Origin: a virus
Virus genome (UHGV): UHGV-0025826
Length of the DNA: 41,937 nt
Direction: 5' to 3' (one strand)
Part shown: positions 3,384 through 39,964 of the stretch, in pieces
Layout: every line of letters starts with the position of its first letter
How positions within the stretch are numbered: position 1 is the first letter of the stretch
The notes under the pieces: model-generated
The model's database searches: none
Told to the model about the DNA's origin: nothing
What the model saw: the letters and a program-made list of their open reading frames with translations, nothing else
Position numbers and translations under genes: made by a program

Positions 3384-4561
3384 TGGACCACCTCGTTAAC
3401 GTCTATATTTTCCACACTCAACGTGAACTTTCCCTGAAAGCCTGGCGATAACTCAGCATCGGTGTAATCTGCCCCATTACTGCTAATTTGCAGATTGGTC
3501 AGCACAAAATTTACCCGTCCTACCCCATACCCATTCTCATAAAATTCATTGGCATCCACAGACTCACCAATATGCATGGTGCGTGATGCAAGAGATTTTT
3601 TGAGAGTATCGATATCTATCGGTTCGCTTTGAATCTTCCGGCGGGCATTAAGCCTGATATGAAGCGGCTTATAGATGGGCCGATCAAACTGAAGTTCATG
3701 GGCTATCAGAAATGAAGTGCCGTCAGGCCGAATCAGGGTCTCGGTAAAACGTCCGGTTATGCTGCCTTTCGTTCCCGTTCCACCGCCTTTCTGTTTAACC
3801 ATCACCTCCACAATTTCTGAAATCGCTCCCCCCTCAACGACCAGCCATATTGAATTGGCCGGGATACCCGTCGTCGGATTATCAATTTTTGTGTCGTTCT
3901 CTCCGATATTCAGATCAATTACACCTGTCAGTTGAGCAACTTTAGCGAAAACCGCCCCAGTGCTACCTGTTGCCGGGTTCTCAAGCGACCGGTTCCGGCG
4001 TTGCCTGAATTCTTCAGGCGTTTCCTCATCCCGACCGACCACAACCGCGGAATCAGAGATAATGCTCACAATCCCTGGTTCTGGTGTGAGTTGAGTGAAG
4101 GTGTCGTTCACAAGCCCAGTAACTTTCCCAAAGTTTTGAGCAAAAAAGGTGGCTGTTGTGACGCCCGCCGGAACGGTCACGTCCTGTCGGATAGCCCAGA
4201 CCTGATTTGCCTGGTCCCGTATCTTATACCCGCTATAGAGAAGCACCGGCCTGTCTGTTGTGACTTTAAGGTCACGCTGAGACCGGGAGCCGGGGCGAAG
4301 GAAAAGCCCGTGAAGTTTGGCGATAATCTGCTGCATATCACCTGTATTAAAATCGGGGTCCATTTGGGAATAAAGCCATTGCAGCGCGGCTTCAATATCT
4401 GCCCGAGCCTGAGCTTCGATTGCCACGCGTTGACCGTCGGGAGATTCCTGGTCTAAATCGATATCCTGACCATAAATTCCCTTATATCCGTCGCTCAGTT
4501 CCTGAAATAACTCCCGGAGAGTGCTTGTCTCAAGGCCGTTGTCGCTAAACTGTAGTGCCAT
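3380..4561 (-). CDS. Baseplate J-like protein (P2 gpJ / Mu gp47-like)
   Basis: 393 aa; size and position typical of baseplate J in Mu/P2-type tail modules. Confidence 0.7.
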   Translation of the reverse strand: MALQFSDNGLETSTLRELFQELSDGYKGIYGQDIDLDQESPDGQRVAIEAQARADIEAALQWLYSQMDPDFNTGDMQQIIAKLHGLFLRPGSRSQRDLKVTTDRPVLLYSGYKIRDQANQVWAIRQDVTVPAGVTTATFFAQNFGKVTGLVNDTFTQLTPEPGIVSIISDSAVVVGRDEETPEEFRQRRNRSLENPATGSTGAVFAKVAQLTGVIDLNIGENDTKIDNPTTGIPANSIWLVVEGGAISEIVEVMVKQKGGGTGTKGSITGRFTETLIRPDGTSFLIAHELQFDRPIYKPLHIRLNARRKIQSEPIDIDTLKKSLASRTMHIGESVDANEFYENGYGVGRVNFVLTNLQISSNGADYTDAELSPGFQGKFTLSVENIDVNEVVQ

Positions 4562-23624: not shown

Positions 23625-24677
23625 TTATTCCCCTGTTAACGCCCTTATTTCCTCCACCGTCTGGCTAAACCTGTCCTCCTCGAGTTCAACGCCGATAGCC
23701 TGGCGGCCAAGTTCCAGCGCGATTTTCACGGTCGAACCGGACCCCATAAAGAAATCAGCCACCACATCACCAGGCTTACTGCTGGCGTTGATGATCTGCC
23801 GCAACATGTCAGCGGGTTTTTCGCATGGGTGTTTACCTGGGTAAAACTGAACGGGTTTATGTGTCCAGACGTCGGTATAAGGAACGGATACGGAAACAGA
23901 GAAATGCCGCCGAAGCGATTTGTACTCTTCGAGCAGCTCTGAATACTTGCGATTTAACGAATGCCACATAGCCACCAGCTGGTGGTGTGGTGTTGCCAGT
24001 TCGCCGTTCTGGTGCTTTTCGATGGCTACCTGCGTGAAAAGGGACTGAAGATTCCGGTAGTCTAATTCATTCGGTAATTGCCACTGGCTACCGCTGAACC
24101 AGTGAGACACCATGTTCTTCTTTCCAGTCGCATCGGCTATTTGTTTTGAGGTTATGCCAAGCGCTTCACGTGCATCCCGGAAATAAGAAATTAGGGGAGT
24201 CATTACATGCTGCTTCAGCTCGCTTCCCTTCTCCGCGTAACCGTCGCTCTTTGGTTTATACGGCCCCTGGTAATGCTCAGCGAAGAGGATGCGCTCTGTT
24301 GCAGGGAAGTAAGAGCGCAGACTCTCTTTATTACAGCCATTCCAGCGGCCCGACGGTTTAGCCCAGATGATGTGGTTCAGGACGTTGAACCGCTCACGCA
24401 TCATGATCTCAATGTCTGCCGCCAGGCGGTGACCGGAGAAAAGATAAAGACTGCCAGCAGGTTTAAGCACTCGCCAGAATTGTGCGAGGCACATATCAAG
24501 CCAGCGAAGATAATCCTCATCCCCTTTCCACTGATTGTCCCAGCCGTTGGGTTTCACTTTGAAGTACGGCGGATCCGTGACTATCAGGTCAATGGAGTTA
24601 TCAGGGAGAGTGGCGATGTATTGCAGGCTATCAGCGTTGACTAACTCAACACTGTTTATATTTACAGTATTTTTCAT
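23625..24677 (-). CDS. DNA methyltransferase, beta-class (N6-adenine or N4-cytosine), no adjacent endonuclease recognised
   Basis: 350 aa; DPPY motif near the N-terminus (LIVTDPPYF) and FxGxG near the C-terminus (DFFMGSGST). Confidence 0.85.
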   Translation of the reverse strand: MKNTVNINSVELVNADSLQYIATLPDNSIDLIVTDPPYFKVKPNGWDNQWKGDEDYLRWLDMCLAQFWRVLKPAGSLYLFSGHRLAADIEIMMRERFNVLNHIIWAKPSGRWNGCNKESLRSYFPATERILFAEHYQGPYKPKSDGYAEKGSELKQHVMTPLISYFRDAREALGITSKQIADATGKKNMVSHWFSGSQWQLPNELDYRNLQSLFTQVAIEKHQNGELATPHHQLVAMWHSLNRKYSELLEEYKSLRRHFSVSVSVPYTDVWTHKPVQFYPGKHPCEKPADMLRQIINASSKPGDVVADFFMGSGSTVKIALELGRQAIGVELEEDRFSQTVEEIRALTGE

Positions 24678-28294: not shown

Positions 28295-28504
28295 TCACCC
28301 CCAGACCTTTTGCCGAAAGGTTCTTGGCGTACGCGCCGGATGTTCGCATTCAGGTAATTTTGCACTGACAGTCCAGGTGATGTTGTCGCGGTTCAGGCTG
28401 CGTTCTACCGTGGCGCCACGACGGCGATAACTCGCCACCAACTCGTCTGCCTGTTCGGTTGTGCATTCGTGATGGTGGAACCAGGAATATTTCATGGTCA
28501 TCAC
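28295..28504 (-). CDS. Hypothetical nin-region protein
   Basis: 69 aa; ATGA-coupled to the upstream gene. Confidence 0.35.
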   Translation of the reverse strand: MMTMKYSWFHHHECTTEQADELVASYRRRGATVERSLNRDNITWTVSAKLPECEHPARTPRTFRQKVWG

Positions 28505-29100
28505 CCCGCAAAGCTCATGAGCTGCGATGCAGCGTTTTCCGCTTCACGCTGGTCCTTGAATGCCCGGGACAATACCCAGCGCCACAGAACATCAAGCGCA
28601 GCTTTGTACAGCTGCTGGAACTCGGTTTCGTCCATGTTGGCGAAAGCTATGCTGCGGGGATGTTTGCGGAGGGTGCCGTCAGGCAGCTGAATGGCGTCGT
28701 AATGGCCGGACTCAATAGTGACCCATGCACGATATGCATCGAATGACTTACAGGCGCAGATGCTACCAGTACGCTTATCGGCGATGCGGTCCAGATATTG
28801 CTCAGCAGCATCCAGGAGTGCTGCTTCACTTCCCGCGAATGAGGCAAGGAACTTGGCATAGCCGGTTACCAGCTTGCGTTCGTTGGAGGAGATTGCCCCG
28901 CCGGTGGGTTCCCAGTATTCGAAACCGAGATTGAGTAACGCGAAGAAACGACGGTGAAAGGCCGGGTTGCGTACCTGCCGGAACTCAGCCACCAGTACGG
29001 AGCCGAGTTTGATTTTTGATTGCAGTAAATCACTGGTCTCCGGCGTAGCGGGGATCAGGATTCCTGAGGAATGCTTGATGAGTTGTAGTTCGTGCGCCAT
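28501..29100 (-). CDS. Hypothetical nin-region protein (possibly DUF1367-like)
   Basis: 199 aa; family name is a weak recollection. Confidence 0.35.
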   Translation of the reverse strand: MAHELQLIKHSSGILIPATPETSDLLQSKIKLGSVLVAEFRQVRNPAFHRRFFALLNLGFEYWEPTGGAISSNERKLVTGYAKFLASFAGSEAALLDAAEQYLDRIADKRTGSICACKSFDAYRAWVTIESGHYDAIQLPDGTLRKHPRSIAFANMDETEFQQLYKAALDVLWRWVLSRAFKDQREAENAASQLMSFAG

Positions 29101-29500: not shown

Positions 29501-29734
29501 CTAATAAAACCAGTCGTCAGCGCTTTCCCAGGTATCCTGGAGGATTGATTCAATTTTCTTTTTATCGTCCTTGTCACCACCAAAAACACTTAACCCATCG
29601 GCCCCGGCACGGCGGATTGTGAGCCTGCAATTGTCATAGTGATCATTCAGGCGCTTAAGCAGTTCTTTCTCCAGTGCTGGTACTGCGCCTTTAGGAAGTT
29701 CTTTCATGCGATCAATGGTTAATTCAACTTTCAT
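29501..29734 (-). CDS. dinI: DinI-like protein (DNA-damage-inducible protein I family)
   Basis: MKVELTIDR...LSVFGGDKDDKKKIESILQDTWESADDWFY aligns along its length with recalled E. coli DinI (...LSVIGATKEDKQRISEILQETWESADDWF); start set to ATG at 29734 with GGGGG upstream. Confidence 0.8.
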   Translation of the reverse strand: MKVELTIDRMKELPKGAVPALEKELLKRLNDHYDNCRLTIRRAGADGLSVFGGDKDDKKKIESILQDTWESADDWFY

Positions 29735-29752: not shown

Positions 29753-29772
29753 TACTGTTTTTTTATACAGTA
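29753..29772. promoter_or_regulatory. LexA (SOS) box overlapping the DinI-like promoter
   Basis: TACTGTTTTTTTATACAGTA is a perfect CTGT-N8-ACAG palindrome 19 nt upstream of the ATG; candidate minus-strand -10 TATACT (29769-29774) and -35 TTGATC overlap it. Confidence 0.6.
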
Positions 29773-29832: not shown

Positions 29833-29862
29833 GTAAAAAAAGAAAACCCGCCGTAGCGGGTT
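29833..29862 (-). terminator. Rho-independent terminator upstream of the DinI-like promoter
   Basis: Minus-strand AACCCGCUACGGCGGGUU followed by UUCUUUUUUU. Confidence 0.45.
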
Positions 29863-29879
29863 GAATTAGCGATGTTTTA

Positions 29880-30020
29880 TTACGCCGCTATTTGTTTCTG
29901 CTGACAAAGCTCCTGTAGGTTAGCCCTAACCAGCGCCTCAGCGAGCTGATGATTGGACAGCATTAACGCAATGGGTAATAGAAACCACAGAATGCACGAA
30001 ATGGCGGTGGTATTCGCCAT
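29880..30020 (-). pseudogene. 46-codon ORF whose last 17 codons duplicate the C5-methyltransferase-like 3' end at 30468-30532
   Basis: C-terminus ..AEALVRANLQELCQQKQIAA versus ..AEALVRANLPELCQQKEIAA in the second copy. Confidence 0.25.
29894..29943. repeat. Imperfect direct repeat, copy 1 (about 50 bp, roughly 6 mismatches)
   Basis: tttctgctgacaaagctcctgtaggttagccctaaccagcgcctcagcga versus copy 2 at 30483-30532. Confidence 0.6.
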
Positions 30021-30131
30021 CTGTGACAGGTTGAATATTGCTCGAATTGTATTGTTTGCACTTTAACGTTTCTGTTGTAGTGCCGGATGCATGCCACCGT
30101 ATGTTCAGGACGATGGCATGCATATTATGGA

Positions 30132-30368
30132 TTACGATTTATCCATTCCCAGGGGATTAGGGTGAATTCCACTTACATGCCAGAACGCATGCTCTCTATT
30201 CAACTGATTTCCCTTTGGTATCAGGAAGCCATACGTCCCAGATTTAAAAGTGGCATGAGCGCAGATTAGACTTTCTCCTTCAAAGCTATACTCAGTCCCT
30301 TCAGGGATTAGAGAGTCAGTCTTGATCAGGTGAACAGTTCCGTTGATAGGGATCATGTAATGGTGCAT
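30132..30368 (-). CDS. Hypothetical 78-aa protein between the two repeat copies
   Basis: GAGGAG 5 nt upstream of the ATG; no family recognised. Confidence 0.45.
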   Translation of the reverse strand: MHHYMIPINGTVHLIKTDSLIPEGTEYSFEGESLICAHATFKSGTYGFLIPKGNQLNREHAFWHVSGIHPNPLGMDKS

Positions 30369-30467
30369 TTTAGGCTCCTCGTGTTGTGAAGAGCCTAATT
30401 ATATCAGGTTTGAATCTACGTCATTGAAGTAGCAGGATTTGTTACACCATGTTCTGAAACTCGGACA

Positions 30468-30708
30468 TTAAGCTGCGATCTCTTTCTGCTGACAAAGCTC
30501 CGGTAAATTAGCCCTCACCAGTGCCTCGGCGAATGGCGGCGGAACTGCGTTGCCACAACGCGCAACCTGCTTGTCCTTCGCGTACTTCTGCCCCCGATAG
30601 TCCTGATCGATGATGTACCACTCCGGGAAGCCCTGCCAGTTTGGCGTTGTTCAACCCTGGGTTGTTGCGCAGGGCTGCCAGCACCTGCTCACGGATTGTT
30701 ATGTTCAT
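30468..30708 (-). pseudogene. Frameshifted 3' remnant of a C5-cytosine DNA methyltransferase (motif IX/X-like)
   Basis: One frame (30468-30650) encodes ..WQGFPEWYIIDQDYRGQKYAKDKQVARCGNAVPPPFAEAL.., resembling GFPD..Y and GNAV of C5-MTases; an ATG 1 nt after the P stop opens a different frame (MNITIREQ..) with no possible N-terminal catalytic domain. Confidence 0.4.
30483..30532. repeat. Imperfect direct repeat, copy 2
   Basis: tttctgctgacaaagctccggtaaattagccctcaccagtgcctcggcga. Confidence 0.6.
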
Positions 30709-30709
30709 G

Positions 30710-31399
30710 TCACACCATCCCGTTCGACTTGTTGCGGTTGTACTTGGCCAGCAGCAGCTGGATCGGCGTCGGCCCTTGCTCGGCAGCTGGTGCGGCAATA
30801 GCCCGGCGTACCGGCGGCACTGGCTTACCCTCGGTGACGCGCCTTTCCCACATGTCCAGCAGATCGCCTGCCTCGCGTGCCAGTTCACCATGCGTTAACT
30901 GGCGCTCGGTGCTGCGGTGGCGCAATTCTACGCAAATGTGGTACATGACCGGCTGCGACCATGGAAATTGCTCGCTGGAGATGAATTCGAACGAGCGGTT
31001 ACGCCAGTCCCAGTATTCGGCGATCACCTGGTCAACGTTGACGCCCAGCGCGCCGCCGCTCTGCTTGCACCAGGCGACGAACTGGCCCGGCGACGGCAGG
31101 AATGGGCGCTCCTGGCGGCGGGCAATGCGCATGCCGGCATCGACCTGAGCCATGGTGTGGATCCCGTTCTCCTGAAACGCCAGCAGCCACTGACGGCGGA
31201 ATTCGTTCAGGTCTTCCTGGGTGCGGAAGTTCGCCATGCTGGCCGGGAACGCGGCGCGCAGCTCGTTGAACAGCTTGTTGAATACCTGCGCCACCTGCTC
31301 GACCGGCGCGCACTCCTGGTACTGCTCTGGCAGGTTATGGGCCATGCGGCTCATCTGCTCGCGGTCGTGGTTACGCATCTGCTCTGCAAGAGATTTCAT
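30710..31399 (-). CDS. P: Replication protein P (helicase loader, lambda P family)
   Basis: 229 aa; near-collinear with recalled lambda P (MKxxAxQMxNxDREQMxRxAxNxPEQY...VAQ..N..F..L.A.FPAS.AN...Q...NE.RRQW.LAF.ENGI.TM.QV.AGMR.ARRQ.RPFLPSPGQFVAWC). Confidence 0.85.
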   Translation of the reverse strand: MKSLAEQMRNHDREQMSRMAHNLPEQYQECAPVEQVAQVFNKLFNELRAAFPASMANFRTQEDLNEFRRQWLLAFQENGIHTMAQVDAGMRIARRQERPFLPSPGQFVAWCKQSGGALGVNVDQVIAEYWDWRNRSFEFISSEQFPWSQPVMYHICVELRHRSTERQLTHGELAREAGDLLDMWERRVTEGKPVPPVRRAIAAPAAEQGPTPIQLLLAKYNRNKSNGMV

Positions 31400-32304
31400 C
31401 GGATCACCCCATAGGCCCAGTCAGTGTTGTTGAAGTCCAGATCTGGCTTGACAGCGCGCTGCTCACCTCCGGCGTTACGCTGCATTGTCAGCTTGTCCCA
31501 CTGCTTACGCAGGCTTTCGGGACTCAGGATGTTGGTCTGCCAGAAGTGGTGTTTGCTAGCCCAGTCATACAGCGCGCAGATGTCCTGGTGCGACCGGTCG
31601 TCTATCTGGCGCATCAGGCGAACAGTGTTAGACCAGGAGGTCATGTCCGGGGCTTTGCAGGTTGGGTTAATCAGCTTCACCCTGGAGGAAATCCACTTAG
31701 CTGTCTCGAGGTCTTCAGCAGAGCCCCACTTCGCACCGGATGGTGTGTAGACCGCAGCTTCAGGATGAGTTGATAAAAATTTCTTCAGACGTGCGTCAGA
31801 GGATTCGTCAGAATTCTCGGACGAAGATCTTTTAATACTGTTCTTGTTCTTGTATTGGGTGTCTACCGTTTTCGGGAAGGTTATTCCTGATTTCGGGAAG
31901 GATTTTCCCGTTTTCGGGAATTTTCTTCCCGTTTCCGGTTTGTCTAAAATCCATGCTGAAAGGTCAGTGTTTACACCGACGATTTTCATCATGCCCTGCT
32001 TCTGTGAAAAGATGATTTTGCGTTCTGCGAGAGACTTAAGCGCGTCCGATACATGCGTATCGCTCAGGCCCGTAAGCTCGGCAATAACCGTATTTGTCAC
32101 GCGGTCCTGTTTCTTGTTCCAGCCGTAGGTAAGCCAGATCACCGCCTCAAAACATTGCCATTCCCGGCCTGACAGTCTCAGGCGAGGCTTAAGCTGTTGG
32201 ATCTCGTTAGCGACCTTGGTATACCCGTTCGACAGGTCGGCCATACGACCTCCCGGTTGTTCGGTTTTATTTGGGAATTTGAATATTTCAGCGGTATTTG
32301 ACAT
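31396..32304 (-). CDS. O: Replication initiator O (lambda O family)
   Basis: Start set to ATG at 32304 with GGAGAA upstream; N-terminal LTYGWNKKQDRVTNTVIAELTGL resembles lambda O KTYGWNKPMDRITDSQLSEITKL; iterons inside the gene; stop overlaps P start. Confidence 0.75.
   Translation of the reverse strand: MSNTAEIFKFPNKTEQPGGRMADLSNGYTKVANEIQQLKPRLRLSGREWQCFEAVIWLTYGWNKKQDRVTNTVIAELTGLSDTHVSDALKSLAERKIIFSQKQGMMKIVGVNTDLSAWILDKPETGRKFPKTGKSFPKSGITFPKTVDTQYKNKNSIKRSSSENSDESSDARLKKFLSTHPEAAVYTPSGAKWGSAEDLETAKWISSRVKLINPTCKAPDMTSWSNTVRLMRQIDDRSHQDICALYDWASKHHFWQTNILSPESLRKQWDKLTMQRNAGGEQRAVKPDLDFNNTDWAYGVIR
31867..31944. repeat. Origin-like iterons inside the O gene
   Basis: Four direct repeats spaced about 20-21 bp (three with core tttcgggaa, a fourth degenerate tttccgg) with an AT-richer stretch on the low-coordinate side. 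Confidence 0.5.
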
Positions 32305-32388
32305 ACTGTTCTCCGCAATTACGCACAGTTTTTGCACCTGAAAGCCGTTGGTGTTCGAGCACCGCGGCTTTCGCCATTTCTGAGCCCG

Positions 32389-32946
32389 TCATAGCGCACC
32401 ACCCAGCATCGTTGTAACCATCGCCATAATGGGCGCCACAGAATCAGGTCCGTCCAGGTAGAGCTTGGCTACGATGCTCTCGCTGATTTCCTTCATCCGT
32501 TCGTGTCTGGGGGCTTTGAGGACGACAGCCTGTATCGCCTCAGCGTCTTCTTTCACCGACCTGGCGACACGAACCGCAAAGCAGTCGTGCTTAATCACGC
32601 GATCCCGGTACGCCAGCGGCAGAACCGAAATTATTACCGGCGCCAGCTGCTCGACGTTCGCCCGGTAGGCCGGTGATTTCTCGTGGTTGTCCAGCCAGCG
32701 AAACAGCTTCACGTTCCACACATCGGCGCTGCCGGTCATGTCAATGCTGTCAAGCTCGGCCTGTTCGGCAGCCTCTTTAATCGCCAGAGCGACCGCCACG
32801 CGACCCTCTGCCGCCGCCCAGGCGCGGACGGCAGAACAGATAGCCCGGTGATCGATCGGCTGGCCTTCAGCCTCACTGTGTTGATACTGGAATTTCAGGT
32901 GCTCTGATGGCGCTCTGTTATTCTGTTGAAAAGAAAGTGTTTGCAT
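32389..32946 (-). CDS. YdaT/CII-like regulatory protein
   Basis: 185 aa; first gene after the cro-like gene; NVKLFRWLDNHEKSPAYRANVEQLAPVIISVLPLAYRDRV resembles recalled Rac YdaT. Confidence 0.45.
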   Translation of the reverse strand: MQTLSFQQNNRAPSEHLKFQYQHSEAEGQPIDHRAICSAVRAWAAAEGRVAVALAIKEAAEQAELDSIDMTGSADVWNVKLFRWLDNHEKSPAYRANVEQLAPVIISVLPLAYRDRVIKHDCFAVRVARSVKEDAEAIQAVVLKAPRHERMKEISESIVAKLYLDGPDSVAPIMAMVTTMLGGAL

Positions 32947-32957
32947 TGTCAGTGCTC

Positions 32958-33176
32958 CTACTTTGGTAATCCGTCAGTGGGATTTGGATAGAGATCAGGG
33001 CGCAGCTCGTGGGGGGTTACGCCTGTCATTTTGAAAATCGGGAAGATATAGCTTGGCGGGACGATCCCTTGGTCACGATTCTTCCAATGACTTACAGACA
33101 TACTCGTCACACCAAGCGCGATGCTGAGCTTTCTGGCAGAGCCAGCGGCTTTAATTGCTTTATCGAGTGCGGACAT
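32958..33176 (-). CDS. Cro-like HTH regulator (YdaS/Cro family)
   Basis: 72 aa; HTH ARKLSIALGVTSMSVSHW and ELRPDLY motif; divergent from the repressor; AGGAGAA RBS. Confidence 0.65.
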   Translation of the reverse strand: MSALDKAIKAAGSARKLSIALGVTSMSVSHWKNRDQGIVPPSYIFPIFKMTGVTPHELRPDLYPNPTDGLPK

Positions 33177-33278
33177 GTGCTTCTCCTGCTTATTGATAGC
33201 AGAAGTAAACCACAGATTTATACTTCATGCAAACTTTGGATTTATTGCGTGCATAAACCAAATATTTACAATGACCAT
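33177..33278. promoter_or_regulatory. Divergent immunity promoter/operator region
   Basis: Inverted repeat CTGCT-N7-AGCAG at 33186-33202; recurring gcaWaaac-like half-sites; plus-strand -35 TTGCGT (33245-33250) and -10 TACAAT (33267-33272) ending 6 nt before the repressor ATG. Confidence 0.45.
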
Positions 33279-33668
33279 ATGAGAAAAGAAGAACCCAACC
33301 TCGTTCTGGTGGAGCGCCTTACTGAGATCACTGATCGCGGCGTTACCAAAGCAGACATGGCAAGAATAGCTGGAGTCACCCCTCAGGCCGTAAACGGCTG
33401 GTTCAAAAAAGGCGTGATTAGTAAGAAATCGGCACTGGCCATAGCCGACGCTGTTGGTATTTCTGTCGCCTGGCTACTCGGTGAAGACGTTGGGGAGAAA
33501 GACGGTCTCAAACCGGACGAACAGCGTTTGCTCGAGCTCTACCGCCAGTTACCGGAAGAAGAGCAGCAGAACATGCTCCGCATTTTTGCGCTTCGCCTGA
33601 AAGAGTTAGATGAGCTGTACGAGAAGTACATGAAGGGTCGGATTCGATCGCAAGGTGAGCAAACCTAA
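33279..33668 (+). CDS. Prophage repressor (XRE-family HTH, no LexA-like peptidase domain)
   Basis: 129 aa from ATG at 33279; HTH ITDRGVTKADMARIAGVTPQAVNGWFKKG; C-terminal coiled-coil-like segment; divergent from cro-like gene. Confidence 0.65.
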   Translation: MRKEEPNLVLVERLTEITDRGVTKADMARIAGVTPQAVNGWFKKGVISKKSALAIADAVGISVAWLLGEDVGEKDGLKPDEQRLLELYRQLPEEEQQNMLRIFALRLKELDELYEKYMKGRIRSQGEQT

Positions 33669-35516: not shown

Positions 35517-38500
35517 ATGGAATTCTTTAATGTGGTTAAAGCCACTCAGAAATCCGGAAAGCAAGATGCAGTGGTCTGGTTCACTGCTAAAACCGAGGCT
35601 CGCGCCAATCTGATGCTGGATGTTGCGCTGGAAGATGCAGGTATCGAAACAGGTCGGGGTAAGGACTACGCCAAACCGATTCGCACTGATTTCCCAGTTG
35701 TCGACGGTCTGCCGAAAGAAGGTGAAGTTGATTTTACCTGGTGTGATCGCTACGAGCTTCAGGACGATGGGCGCACCTGGCTGCCAAAAGCCGCTGGTGT
35801 GTCTACTGGTTCCGTTGACGCCCCCTACACACCTACTCCGACCGTAATCGTTGAAGATGCGACTGCGTCCGAAATTGTCCCGGTTGAAAACCGTACTCCA
35901 GCGGTCCGCTTTGCCGTCCATCTGATGAACGATAAATACCAAACCCACGTCACTAAAGAGCAGCAGTTGGCTGCCAGCGAAATGTCACTGGATGAAGGCA
36001 ATACATATCTCCATAGCCTGCTTGTGGCAAGGAACGATGTGCCCGCGACCGCCAAACTCAGCCTGAATGCTGAGTGGAAAATGATTCGGGCGGTTAAGGA
36101 CATTTTCACACCAGACGAAGAGCACGAACCAAGATTGATCGCTGCATTCATGTCTGACTGGGTGAACACCGATGCCGGTGACCGCAATCAACTGGTAGAA
36201 GACTGGCGCAGTGGTAAGTTGCAGTTGCTCAAAACTGAAACCAGCAACGCTGCTGACGTTACAACTGGTCAAGATCTCACTGTTGAGGACGGTATCCAGA
36301 CCGACGAGAACGGCCGGGCAGAAGGTGGCGTCGTTGATGGTGAAGTCGATACCGAAGAGCAATCCCAGCAGACACAGCAACCGAACCTGATCGTTGTTGC
36401 CACCCTGCCATTCCGCCAGCGCGTACTGGCTCAGTTCATCGGTGATGGTGAATATCTCTATCACATCGACGCAGGGCAGAAAAATGAGATTGTCCGCCTT
36501 GAGATGGACACCGATGACGCGTACGTCCAGAACCTGCTGCTGGCAGCTGAGAATGTGGAAGCATTCAAAAAAGCCATTGAGCACGATATTCATAAAGTCG
36601 TGAATGCCGTTAAGAAAGTCTTCCCTGTCGATGGTAAAAAACCGGAGCTGGCAACAGTTATCCAGTTCCTGACTGTGTGGTTCAACACTGATTACATCGA
36701 CCGTGGCCTGCTGGTCAAGGAATGGCAGAAAGGTAACCGCGTTGCGCAGATTCAACGTACTGACGTCAAAACCAATGCTGGCGGTGGAAATAAGACCGAT
36801 CGTAATACCGACTATGTCCACACACTGGACACTTTGGATGTTGAAATTGCGCTGGCCACCTTGCCAATGGATTTCAATATCTACGACATACCTGGTGGGG
36901 TCTACCGTCGCGCTAAAGAGATTGTCAGCAAGAAAGAAAGTCCGTTCAGCGAATGGTCTGAGGCGCTGCGCAAAACCGCTGGCATCCTGGACTATTCACG
37001 CGCCGCCATCTTTGCACTCATCCGCGGCACATCATCAGAATTGGTTAACTTTCCTGGGCGGTTGCGGGCATATATCAATGCCAATCTAACCGAAAATGAC
37101 CACTCAAACCTCTCAGAAGAAACGCTGGCTGATGCTGGTCATGCGCCGGACGTCAGCTGGGAAAATGAGGTTAATGAGCAGGTCGCTGCAGAGCAGAAAA
37201 CAGCTGCTAAACAGCCACAAATCGCCAACATGGGCAACGGCGTATTCTCCATTGATGGCCTGATGGGCGATCAACAAACACAAACAGATAACCGTTCACC
37301 ACTTAATGAGGAAACCACCAGCAATGTGCAGATGGAAGAAACTGTCAGTGATGAAGAACAGGCTGGTGATGAAGTGCAGTCAGGCGAAAGCAGTCTGGAA
37401 ACTGGTGAAGAGTCACATACCGGCCAGCAAGCCGATGTGAGCCAGAATGCGGATTCTGTTAGCCAAAACAGCGATTCTGTAAACCAAACCGAACCGGTTG
37501 CGGCCCAAACCGAGCCAGAAGCTCAATCTGACGAACCGGGTGTTGTGTACCCTGCTTACTTCGAACCTGGCCGCTATGAAGGTCTGCCGAACGAGGTTTA
37601 CCACGCTGCCAACGGCATCAGTTCCACCCAGGTAAAAGATGCGCGCGTTTCGCTGATGTACTTCAATGCGCGCCACGTTGAGAAAACCATCGTCAAAGAG
37701 CGCTCCTCAGTGCTGGACATGGGAAACCTGGTACATGCGCTGGCGTTGCAGCCAGAACAGCTCGATGAAGAATTTAGCGTTGAACCCGTAATTCCGGAAG
37801 GTGCATTTACCACCACGGCAACGATCCGCGCGTTTATTGATGAGTACAACGCCAGCCTGCCAGCGCAACTGAGCGCAGACGATATCAAAGCTTTGCTGGA
37901 TGAATACAACGCCACCCTGCCAGCGCTGGTGCCGCTGGGCGCTAGCCTGGATGAAACGGCGCAGAACTATATGGCGCTGCCAGCTGAATTCCAACGTATC
38001 GATGCAGATCAGAAGAAGACAGCAACAGCAATGAAGGCGTGCATCAAAGAGTACAACGCCACCCTGCCAGCGCAGATTAAAACCAGCGGCAGCCGCGACG
38101 CACTACTCGAACAACTTGCGATTATCAATCCTGACCTGGTCGCGCAGGAAGCTCAGAAGCTGCAACCGCTGAAAGTCTCTGGCACGAAGGCCGATCTGAT
38201 TCAGGCCGTGAAGGCAGTCAAACCAGATGCAGTGTTCGCCGACGAGCTGCTCGATGCGTGGCGCAACAACCCGGAAGGGAAAGTGCTGGTTACCCACCAG
38301 CAACTTGCCACCGCGCAGGCAATTCAGTCAGCACTGCTCTCGCACCCGACCGCAGGCATGCTGCTAACCCACCCGAGCCGCGCCGTTGAGGTGAGCTACT
38401 TTGGCTTTGACGAGGAGACGGGACTGGAAGTTCGTGTGCGCCCTGACCTTGAGATCGACCTAGACGGCGTGCGTATCGGTGCTGACCTGAAAACCATCAG

Positions 38501-38840
38501 CATGTGGAATGTTAAGCAGGAAAGCCTGCGCGCCAGGCTACACCGGGAAATTATTGAACGTGATTATCACCTGAGCGCGGCTATGTACTGCGAAACCGCA
38601 GCGCTGGATCAGTTCTTCTGGATTTTCGTCAACAAAGACGAGAACTACCACTGGATCGCCATCATCGAGGCATCCGCTGAACTACTGGAGCTGGGTATGC
38701 TCGAGTACCGCAAAGCGATGCGCAATATCGCAACCGGATTCGACACAGGTGAATGGCCAGCGCCAATCACTGCTGACTACACCGACGAACTGAACGACTT
38801 CGACCTGCGCCGCCTTGAAGCGCTGCGTACTCAGGCATAA
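35517..38840 (+). CDS. RecE-like exonuclease (exonuclease VIII-type, long N-terminal extension)
   Basis: 1107 aa; acidic low-complexity middle; directly upstream of a RecT/Redbeta-like annealase; GAGGA RBS; nuclease-domain assignment is positional. Confidence 0.55.
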   Translation: MEFFNVVKATQKSGKQDAVVWFTAKTEARANLMLDVALEDAGIETGRGKDYAKPIRTDFPVVDGLPKEGEVDFTWCDRYELQDDGRTWLPKAAGVSTGSVDAPYTPTPTVIVEDATASEIVPVENRTPAVRFAVHLMNDKYQTHVTKEQQLAASEMSLDEGNTYLHSLLVARNDVPATAKLSLNAEWKMIRAVKDIFTPDEEHEPRLIAAFMSDWVNTDAGDRNQLVEDWRSGKLQLLKTETSNAADVTTGQDLTVEDGIQTDENGRAEGGVVDGEVDTEEQSQQTQQPNLIVVATLPFRQRVLAQFIGDGEYLYHIDAGQKNEIVRLEMDTDDAYVQNLLLAAENVEAFKKAIEHDIHKVVNAVKKVFPVDGKKPELATVIQFLTVWFNTDYIDRGLLVKEWQKGNRVAQIQRTDVKTNAGGGNKTDRNTDYVHTLDTLDVEIALATLPMDFNIYDIPGGVYRRAKEIVSKKESPFSEWSEALRKTAGILDYSRAAIFALIRGTSSELVNFPGRLRAYINANLTENDHSNLSEETLADAGHAPDVSWENEVNEQVAAEQKTAAKQPQIANMGNGVFSIDGLMGDQQTQTDNRSPLNEETTSNVQMEETVSDEEQAGDEVQSGESSLETGEESHTGQQADVSQNADSVSQNSDSVNQTEPVAAQTEPEAQSDEPGVVYPAYFEPGRYEGLPNEVYHAANGISSTQVKDARVSLMYFNARHVEKTIVKERSSVLDMGNLVHALALQPEQLDEEFSVEPVIPEGAFTTTATIRAFIDEYNASLPAQLSADDIKALLDEYNATLPALVPLGASLDETAQNYMALPAEFQRIDADQKKTATAMKACIKEYNATLPAQIKTSGSRDALLEQLAIINPDLVAQEAQKLQPLKVSGTKADLIQAVKAVKPDAVFADELLDAWRNNPEGKVLVTHQQLATAQAIQSALLSHPTAGMLLTHPSRAVEVSYFGFDEETGLEVRVRPDLEIDLDGVRIGADLKTISMWNVKQESLRARLHREIIERDYHLSAAMYCETAALDQFFWIFVNKDENYHWIAIIEASAELLELGMLEYRKAMRNIATGFDTGEWPAPITADYTDELNDFDLRRLEALRTQA

Positions 38841-38845
38841 GGGGA

Positions 38846-39964
38846 ATGATGATGGAAAACACGAATATCGTAACCGCTGAACAGCAGACTCCAAACACGA
38901 TCTCAGCCAGCAATGCCATTTTCAACGTGCAGGCTTTAACCCAGCTTCAGTCTGTCGCCGGGTTGATGGCACAGGCAGCCGTAACGGTGCCTGAGCACCT
39001 CCGCGGCAATCCGGCAGACTGCATGGCCATCATCATGCAGGCGATGCAGTGGGGTATGAACCCTTACGCCGTGGCGCAAAAGACGCACCTGGTTAATGGT
39101 GTCCTGGGATACGAAGCGCAACTGGTTAATGCGGTGATCTCCAGCTCAAACGCCATCGTTGGCCGCTTTCACTATGAGTACGAGGGCGACTGGTCGAAAT
39201 GTGCCAGCAGCCGCGAGATAACCGTTAAAAAGCCTGCGAAAGGTGGCGGGACGTACGACAAGAAAGAAATGGTACGCGGTTGGGAAAGTGCTGATGAACA
39301 AGGACTGTCGGTACGGGTAGGTGCCGTTATTCGCGGTGAAAGTGATATCACCTGGGGAGAGCCTGTTTTCCTCTCCAGCGTAATCACACGTAATTCTCCA
39401 CTTTGGGTATCAAACCCGAAACAGCAGATCGCTTATCTGGCACTCAAATACTGGGCGCGCCTGTATTGCCCTGCAGTTGTTCTTGGTGTGTACACCCCTG
39501 ATGAGATTGAACAGCGCACAGAAAAAGAGATCAACCCAACGCCGCAACGCGTTAGCCTGGCTGATATCTCAGGTGACACCGTCACAACCACGCAAAGCGC
39601 ACAGGAATCGTCGGTAAATGTCGACTCTCTTGCCGATGATTTCCGCGAACGCATCGAATCTGCTCAGAACGTGGATAGCGCCAAATCGCTGCGTGCCGAC
39701 ATTGAAACGGCGAAAGCTACGCTGGGATCCGCACTATTCACCGAGCTGAAAAACAAAGCCGTAAAGCGTTATTACCTAGTGGATGCACGCAACAAGGTTG
39801 AGGAGGCTATTAAATCCCTGCCCCAGCCCGACGAGCCGCATGCATCCGAACGGTTCGCTGAAGCCGAGCGCATGCTTGCATCTTCAAAGCGTCACTTAGG
39901 CGATGAACTGCACGATCAATTCAGCATCACCCTGGCGGATATGAAACCGGAATACGTGGCCTGA
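38846..39964 (+). CDS. Single-strand annealing protein (RecT/Redbeta family)
   Basis: 372 aa; AMQWGMNPYAV resembles lambda Bet ANQYGLNPWTK and RecT; immediately downstream of the exonuclease. Confidence 0.6.
   Translation: MMMENTNIVTAEQQTPNTISASNAIFNVQALTQLQSVAGLMAQAAVTVPEHLRGNPADCMAIIMQAMQWGMNPYAVAQKTHLVNGVLGYEAQLVNAVISSSNAIVGRFHYEYEGDWSKCASSREITVKKPAKGGGTYDKKEMVRGWESADEQGLSVRVGAVIRGESDITWGEPVFLSSVITRNSPLWVSNPKQQIAYLALKYWARLYCPAVVLGVYTPDEIEQRTEKEINPTPQRVSLADISGDTVTTTQSAQESSVNVDSLADDFRERIESAQNVDSAKSLRADIETAKATLGSALFTELKNKAVKRYYLVDARNKVEEAIKSLPQPDEPHASERFAEAERMLASSKRHLGDELHDQFSITLADMKPEYVA

Follow-up and report, generated by a model that had tools for sequence, protein, structure and literature searches.

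A proposed mosaic joint in a lambdoid nin region, probably built and then eroded by recombination at the 3' end of a phage C5-cytosine methyltransferase gene

The window analyzed here, the whole 41,937-nucleotide stretch of virus genome UHGV-0025826, is an mEp237/phi80-like lambdoid prophage of E. coli that reads on the minus strand, and the interval under study (29,880 to 30,708) lies in its nin region. Comparison with related phages and prophages indicates, with a probability of roughly 0.85, that this interval is a mosaic joint that was built and then eroded by recombination.

On the minus strand, the gene order runs from O (31396-32337) and P (30710-31399) through the studied interval to dinI (29501-29734), an 82-aa ORF and ninB/DUF1367 (28501-29100). 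The upstream neighbor, replication protein P, is 100% identical to gp43 of mEp237 by tblastn, and dinI, the downstream module, matches PF06183 (E = 4e-26). A perfect LexA box, TACTGT-N8-ACAGTA (TACTGTTTTTTTATACAGTA, 29753-29772), lies immediately upstream of dinI, which is therefore presumably SOS-regulated; a second LexA box with one mismatch is found at 24650-24669. Since a YdaT_toxin-domain protein (32389-32946, minus strand) occupies the CII position, beside an HTH_3 repressor-like gene (33009-33668, plus strand), the immunity region is of the Rac/YdaS-YdaT type, not the lambda cI/cro/cII type. The early-left operon carries recE (35517-38840) and recT (38846-39964) on the plus strand (PF06630, PF12684, PF03837), which encode a RecE of 1,107 aa (Exonuclease VIII N-terminus and PDDEXK DUF3799) and a RecT of 372 aa; this pair, for which PADLOC returned no match, is a candidate catalyst of the rearrangements.

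The interval contains a direct repeat, which a preliminary description made from the sequence alone had put at about 50 bp. The repeat is real (E = 1.5e-14 for the two copies in pairwise blastn), but its actual size is 66 nt, with a distal copy (A type, 29879-29944) and a proximal copy (B type, 30467-30532) on the minus strand, spaced by 588 nt and identical at 55 of 66 positions (83%); 11 positions tell A from B. A 19-nt identical block within them (29895-29913 in A, 30483-30501 in B) occurs exactly twice in the 42-kb window, against an expectation of zero. As proposed, minus-strand translation of both copies gives the same C-terminal peptide, ..AEALVRANL(Q/P)ELCQQK(Q/E)IAA*, which is the last 20 codons and stop of a phage C5-cytosine methyltransferase (29880-29942 in the distal stub). 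The similarity between A and B ends no more than 1-4 nt from the stop codon, and likewise among alleles with different downstream modules. The repeats are not the common intergenic element that would have spoken against this reading: intact genes in E. coli H6, the IMG/VR loci L031 and L042, and Klebsiella phage 5 LV-2017 truly end in this sequence.

The proximal copy extends upstream as ..QGFPEWYIIDQDYRGQKYAKDKQVARCGNAVPPPF, this longer copy reading GFPEWYIIDQDYRGQKYAKDKQVARCGNAVPPPF.. in minus-strand translation, and it belongs to a methyltransferase remnant of the last 55 codons plus stop (30468-30636, minus strand, frame 1) that retains motifs IX-X (QGFP ... GNAVPP). In tblastn the remnant is 93% identical to residues 608-662 of the E. 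coli H6 methylase, and through its 134-aa version in mEp237 it matches positions 270-320 of the 324-position Pfam profile PF00145 (E = 4e-7). The resemblance to motifs IX and X noted earlier, for which a similarity search had been proposed as the test, is thus upheld by both PF00145 and full-length phage methylases. When the 662-aa H6 enzyme was used as a tblastn query against the window, only residues 608-662 and 643-662 were matched, and no motif I (FxGxG AdoMet site), motif IV (PC catalytic cysteine), motif VI (ENV) or target-recognition region was found there. This agrees with the earlier remark that the longer copy has no room for a catalytic N-terminus and is a remnant. Motifs I, IV and VI are present in H6 and L031 and were lost here through two deletions, of 2,865 and 718 bp. 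Moreover, the window has no uninterrupted methylase frame with a start, the sole upstream start being the ren ATG at 30708, out of frame. With neither a catalytic N-terminus nor a frame, the methylase of the window is dead: the remnant is unambiguously C5-methyltransferase-derived and encodes no functional enzyme.

The ren start belongs to a truncated gene, ren' (30628-30708, minus strand), which comprises the first 27 codons of a Ren-like winged-helix gene of 114 aa in mEp237. The complete gene, which matches PHROG 142 and HTH_24, is present in mEp237, CUWW10 and ECCWS199, and its full-length product (~114 aa) is absent here. Codons 1-27 end in the single leftover copy of a 9-nt microhomology, GCAGGGCTT (30628-30636), which marks the deletion of 718 bp relative to mEp237. 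As 718 is not a multiple of 3, these codons are out of frame with the last 55 methylase codons, and they continue instead into 39 out-of-frame codons over the remnant to form a hybrid junk ORF of 66 aa (30508-30708). The "hypothetical protein" between P and the 78-aa gene downstream is this ren'-methylase junk fusion, and its annotation should be corrected. The preliminary description called the remnant frameshifted; it is indeed out of frame, but by the deletion junction that joins the ren start to methylase sequence and not by a frameshift internal to the methylase, and the N-terminal part of that ORF is ren, not methylase.

The closest described relative is phage mEp237 (NC_019704 / JQ182730, gp43-gp48), which is 99.6-99.9% identical to the interval at the DNA level and 718 bp longer. 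Its gene order is P, the Ren-like gene, gp45 (65 aa), gp46 (134 aa), an annotated promoter, the 78-aa gene, the distal copy and dinI, so that it shares the truncated methylase end, promoter, 78-aa gene, distal stub and dinI with the window but keeps ren, gp45 and 134 methylase codons, from which the window lacks 718 bp. The gp46 product is annotated as "DNA methyltransferase, similar to C-terminus of..." and matches only the last 50 positions of PF00145. The 9-nt sequence lies at both ends of the 718-bp segment in mEp237, in ren codons 25-27 and in gp46 (2765-2773 and 3483-3491 of locus L001). A literature search for mEp237 by name gave no true match, only false positives from DOI strings.

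To place these states in a broader context, we surveyed 41 related loci for the methylase by tblastn with the 662-aa H6 protein. The exact configuration of the window was found in 13 IMG/VR loci. Among 5,426 complete E. coli genomes, 32 carry the whole interval, one of which (CUWW10) is in the undeleted mEp237 state. L031 and L042 have an uninterrupted 627-aa PF00145 methylase, and downstream of it lie a 78-aa gene 100% identical to that of the window, the same distal stub, and then dinI and ninB. Relative to L031, mEp237 has a 2,865-bp deletion with junction homology GGTGGGCTG (12 of 13 nt, including 9 nt of identity). Two successive microhomology deletions, L031 to mEp237 and mEp237 to window, would thus turn an L031-type phage into the state of the window. 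Of the checks proposed with the preliminary description, the methylase search yielded an intact ancestor (L031/L042, 627 aa), and comparison of related prophages yielded the deletion states as well as the chimeras described below.

Intact enzymes are also encoded by E. coli H6 (662 aa, with motifs FAGGGG, PDCRHFS, ENV, QGFP and GNAVPP) and by Klebsiella phage 5 LV-2017 (715 aa), in which 28 nt separate the stop codon from the annotated start of a downstream dinI homologue, with an intrinsic terminator just 3' of the stop. The remnant shares QGFP and GNAVPP and 82-93% protein identity with the last 55-122 residues of these two enzymes, while the window lacks their motifs I, IV and VI and target-recognition region. 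The intact methylases span 627-715 aa (L010 1105-3093, L031 1518-3398, L004 722-2869, L018 1950-3923), with about 450 residues between the N-terminal catalytic motifs and motifs IX-X. This is unusually long among PF00145 enzymes, and recalls multispecific phage C5 methylases, which have several target-recognition domains.

Between the two repeat copies lies, as originally described, a 78-aa ORF with a strong RBS (30132-30368, minus strand; GAGGAG at 30375-30380), which belongs to phrog_30079 (function not assigned). It is preceded by a promoter-like site, ATGACG-N15-TGATATAAT (extended -10; 30398-30424, minus strand), that is annotated in mEp237 and conserved in window-type, H6-type and L048 alleles; both the RBS and the predicted promoter are kept across alleles of the gene. 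A simple sigma-70 scan requiring a 16-18 nt spacer did not call this promoter because its spacer is 15 nt. Directly 3' of the stop codon is a hairpin with 14-bp arms (ATGCATGCCATCGT / ACGGTGGCATGCAT; 30087-30123, minus strand), partly conserved in L014 (an 88%-identical allele), which lacks a T-run and could be an RNA-stability or processing element; the first canonical terminator downstream of the gene lies after the distal stub.

The 78-aa family has an invariant Cys36, His38, Tyr46-Gly47 and a PNPL motif, and the protein is beta-rich. It has no match to a family, fold or defense model, and a scan of species-representative genomes for the family returned none. Near-identical alleles give dN/dS values of 0.26-0.81 from very few substitutions, which is suggestive of coding constraint and not significant. 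In the dcm-vsr paradigm, a C5 methylase is accompanied by a Vsr-like repair partner; the 78-aa protein resembles Vsr endonuclease neither in sequence nor in fold. In a separate database protein, P0003 (142 aa), residues 19-78 of the 78-aa protein are preceded by a YdaT/CII-like N-terminal sequence; this may be another deletion fusion in some relative, or an artifact of its assembly or annotation.

The preliminary description treated this ORF as cargo, a view that its genomic neighborhood contradicts. In H6, the same intergenic region follows the methylase and is 83% identical down to window position 30391, after which come a 78-aa ORF (42% identical), a terminator, holE (theta) and ninB. Similarly, the metagenomic locus L018 encodes a 657-aa PF00145 protein followed after 77 nt by a 75-aa family member. 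The family members beside the intact methylases of H6 and L018 share 40-56% amino acid identity with that of the window. In total, a family member directly follows a full-length methylase in ten loci, and in nearly all others a methylase stub takes that place; the exception is L048, where no methylase precedes the gene and the homology starts exactly at the -35 element. The conserved promoter and this adjacency, seen in H6, L018, L031 and others, indicate that the 78-aa gene is probably the native downstream neighbor of the methylase, in three lineages diverged to about 40% identity, and not inserted cargo. Each gene also occurs without an intact partner, the 78-aa gene where the methylase has been destroyed and the methylase without the 78-aa gene in Klebsiella phage 5 LV-2017, so the association is historical, not obligate. 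It is improbable, in our assessment, that the 78-aa protein is a novel functional partner or successor of the large methyltransferase (for example an anti-restriction or anti-defense factor, or a methylation modulator), with selection keeping its expression from its own promoter and the tandem ends acting as a switch to shed or regain the gene.

The distal copy has a different origin. It is followed by an intrinsic terminator (29835-29862, minus strand) homologous to the one that follows the intact methylase of Klebsiella phage 5 LV-2017, and then by dinI. Given the methylase-terminator-dinI order of the Klebsiella phage, the distal copy appears to be the final 20 codons of another methylase allele, one that formerly lay directly next to dinI. 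Across the 41 loci surveyed by tblastn, the distal stub lies downstream of every window-type 78-aa allele and of no H6-type allele, which implies that the duplication arose once, by a join between methylase-78aa and methylase'-terminator-dinI segments. In L014, the 36 nt upstream of the AEALV codons are 53% identical to the true methylase (null maximum 44%), which weakly suggests that the stub originally measured about 96-99 nt; L008, L011 and L012 have comparable stubs of 99 nt. Beyond about 36 nt, methylase homology in the non-coding spacer of 187 nt (29945-30131, minus strand) does not rise above shuffles. This spacer has no homologue outside the 78-aa module, and no "before" partner of the original join carrying it survives among the genomes compared. 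It holds an accidental 46-aa ORF (29880-30020) that runs into the distal stub; we rejected this ORF as a real gene, as it has no RBS or Pfam/PHROG match, its ATG is missing in L014, and alleles in L014, L033, L034, L037 and L040 have 1-nt indels. The preliminary reading of the interval as the scar of cargo exchange by recombination at a conserved gene end therefore needs division: a recombination scar at a conserved gene end is present, but of the two copies only the distal stub marks the join to terminator-dinI, and the 78-aa ORF did not arrive as cargo.

In addition to marking this join, the repeats themselves appear to have served as recombination substrates, which the preliminary description had not considered; the evidence is the loss of the module from one prophage and a set of chimeric stubs. 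Three genomes have a single-copy pattern, of which E. coli AR_0119 (L006) was examined in detail. Its one copy reads BBBBBBAAAAA at the 11 diagnostic sites, with the switch inside the 19-nt block (30483-30501 in the B copy), and it carries the same 718-bp ren::methylase deletion as the window. A pop-out product built from the window matches AR_0119 with 0 mismatches from -546 to +184. The B/A chimera and this exact match indicate that AR_0119 most likely lost the 588-bp module by recombination between the two repeats. The alternative that AR_0119 is an ancestral empty site with a pure B end, which a blastn extension at 99.4% had seemed to offer, was discarded after per-position typing and the pop-out reconstruction.

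Other chimeras occur in the same sequence. In MSB1_9D (L011), A-type sequence gives way to H6-type after GAAACAAATAGCGGC and runs on into a 78aa-theta module. 2022CK-00450 (L008) and ES8 (L012) have an H6-type left part and an A-type right part that leads into terminator-dinI; L008 and L011 share the same upstream HTH gene and have different DNA after the stop codon. Overall, the 60-100-nt methylase end is found upstream of promoter-78aa, terminator-dinI or 60aa-theta, and downstream of P/ren, an HTH gene, YdcA, P63C or an intact methylase. This patch thus appears to be recombinationally active. In E. coli ECCWS199 (L009; 2858-2949 and 7149-7213), the ren-to-dinI interval is occupied by another cargo block, with a tRNA-Ile annotated on the opposite strand, and a tRNA (Thr) lies downstream of Q.

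The module might instead be foreign cargo, a moron placed in or next to the methylase 3' end whose insertion itself created the flanking duplication. Its base composition is compatible with this, as the 78-aa module, at 43.5% GC, is richer in AT than either the remnant (56% GC) or P (63%), with the window at 50% and dinI at 45%; it also has its own predicted promoter, it is present or absent between near-identical prophages (the window and AR_0119), and the homology of L048 starts precisely at that promoter. We nonetheless consider an insertion of this kind unlikely. The methylase-78-aa adjacency, with the same intergenic promoter, is found without the distal stub in H6, L018 and L044-L047, at 40-56% amino acid identity, and is thus older than the duplication. 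The "empty" site of AR_0119, being a B/A chimera, is deletion-derived and not a pre-insertion state, the 17% divergence of copies A and B is not that of a fresh target-site duplication, and no vacant site whose end is of A type alone or B type alone was found in a genome basal to the occupied ones.

Morons are autonomous promoter-gene-terminator units in lambdoid phages, and the 78-aa gene resembles them in a GC content below that of its upstream flank and in its presence/absence variation, and perhaps in its conserved predicted promoter and a terminator downstream. It differs from them as an old syntenic neighbor of the methylase, not a recent insertion: AR_0119, the sole near-identical "empty" site, is a secondary loss, and the terminator that the gene uses was inherited from the methylase-dinI arrangement, in which the two genes are adjacent in Klebsiella phage 5 LV-2017.

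The last ~60-66 nt of the methylase could also have been retained for a function of their own, as an RNA element, part of a terminator or processing signal, or a selected recombination linker. Stubs of about 20-33 codons do persist before terminator-dinI or theta in otherwise different prophages (SEN34, L008, L009, L012, L014, L037-L040), and in the distal stub the last 60-66 nt match real methylase ends at 83-100%, against about 53% in the decayed 36 nt that precede them. Repeated conversion or crossover with intact alleles would account equally well for this unevenness, and the chimeras are direct evidence of such exchange. Moreover, the stubs ahead of dinI or theta range in length from about 22 to 405 nt and follow at least six different upstream neighbors (including that in Salmonella phage SEN34), and in E. 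coli ES7 only about 22 nt are left before the same terminator-dinI. No Rfam family matched at the gathering threshold, the sole match (E = 0.33) falling on the terminator hairpin. On this evidence, selective retention is very unlikely.

We thus favor a mosaic joint that was built and then eroded, and infer the order of events from the extant states. The ancestral unit would have been a large phage C5-methyltransferase gene followed by the promoter-bearing 78-aa gene. An illegitimate join would then have set this unit before the last ~96-99 nt of a second methylase allele with its terminator and SOS-regulated dinI, duplicating the methylase 3' end directly, a state that appears to remain intact in L031 and L042. 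A 2,865-bp microhomology deletion would next have removed five small ORFs and about 500 methylase codons, giving the mEp237 state, and a 718-bp deletion between the two 9-nt repeats would have taken out gp45, all of ren beyond codon 27 and a further part of the methylase, producing the state of the window. The 78-aa gene and dinI would be left intact as predicted separate transcription units, and the conserved methylase 3' end would now be only a short homology patch, in which recombinases of the phage (RecE/RecT in the window) or of the host may cross over, with a swap of the downstream module or a 588-bp deletion as the outcome.

The two deletions have junction homologies of 9-13 nt, and several crossovers fall in a patch that is 83% identical overall. 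Phage single-strand-annealing recombination is the inferred catalyst of these events; host RecA or replication slippage may have been the agent instead. Red recombination is efficient on 22%-diverged DNA, RecET acts on homologies of 5-13 bp, and homeologous "shoulders" occur at lambdoid mosaic borders (PMC2327257), while Rad52-like recombinases carry out relaxed recombination (PMC3945230). The boundary-sequence and illegitimate-recombination models of mosaicism have been summarized previously (PMC3233612).

Similarly to the lambdoid mosaic joints described in these studies (PMC3233612, PMC2327257, PMC3945230), the interval has a short gene-boundary sequence common to phages that differ on one side, crossovers inside this patch in chimeras, other joints with 9-13 nt of microhomology, and RecET in the same prophage. 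Unlike those joints, the patch here is the coding 3' end of a mostly deleted gene and not an intergenic linker, and it occurs twice in direct orientation in one genome, so that it mediates intramolecular deletion as well as exchange. The arrangement appears to fit all the sequence-testable features of a lambdoid module-boundary homology patch. The preliminary description was thus right in outline, and wrong on the scar element, the nature of the frameshift and the "cargo".

Taken together, these observations represent known lambdoid mosaicism, the ordinary and well-documented scars of module shuffling, in a near-identical sequence that was already public and partly annotated in mEp237, and they leave the current understanding of phage evolution unchanged. 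They also flag a small orphan family, phrog_30079, as tightly associated with large phage C5-methyltransferases. The interval is a compact natural case in which both textbook routes of mosaicism are legible from sequence, the illegitimate route as microhomology deletions and joins and the homeologous route as crossovers in a 66-nt, 83%-identical patch, with the intact ancestor, two intermediates and the pop-out product all extant in public genomes and a RecET pair in the same prophage.
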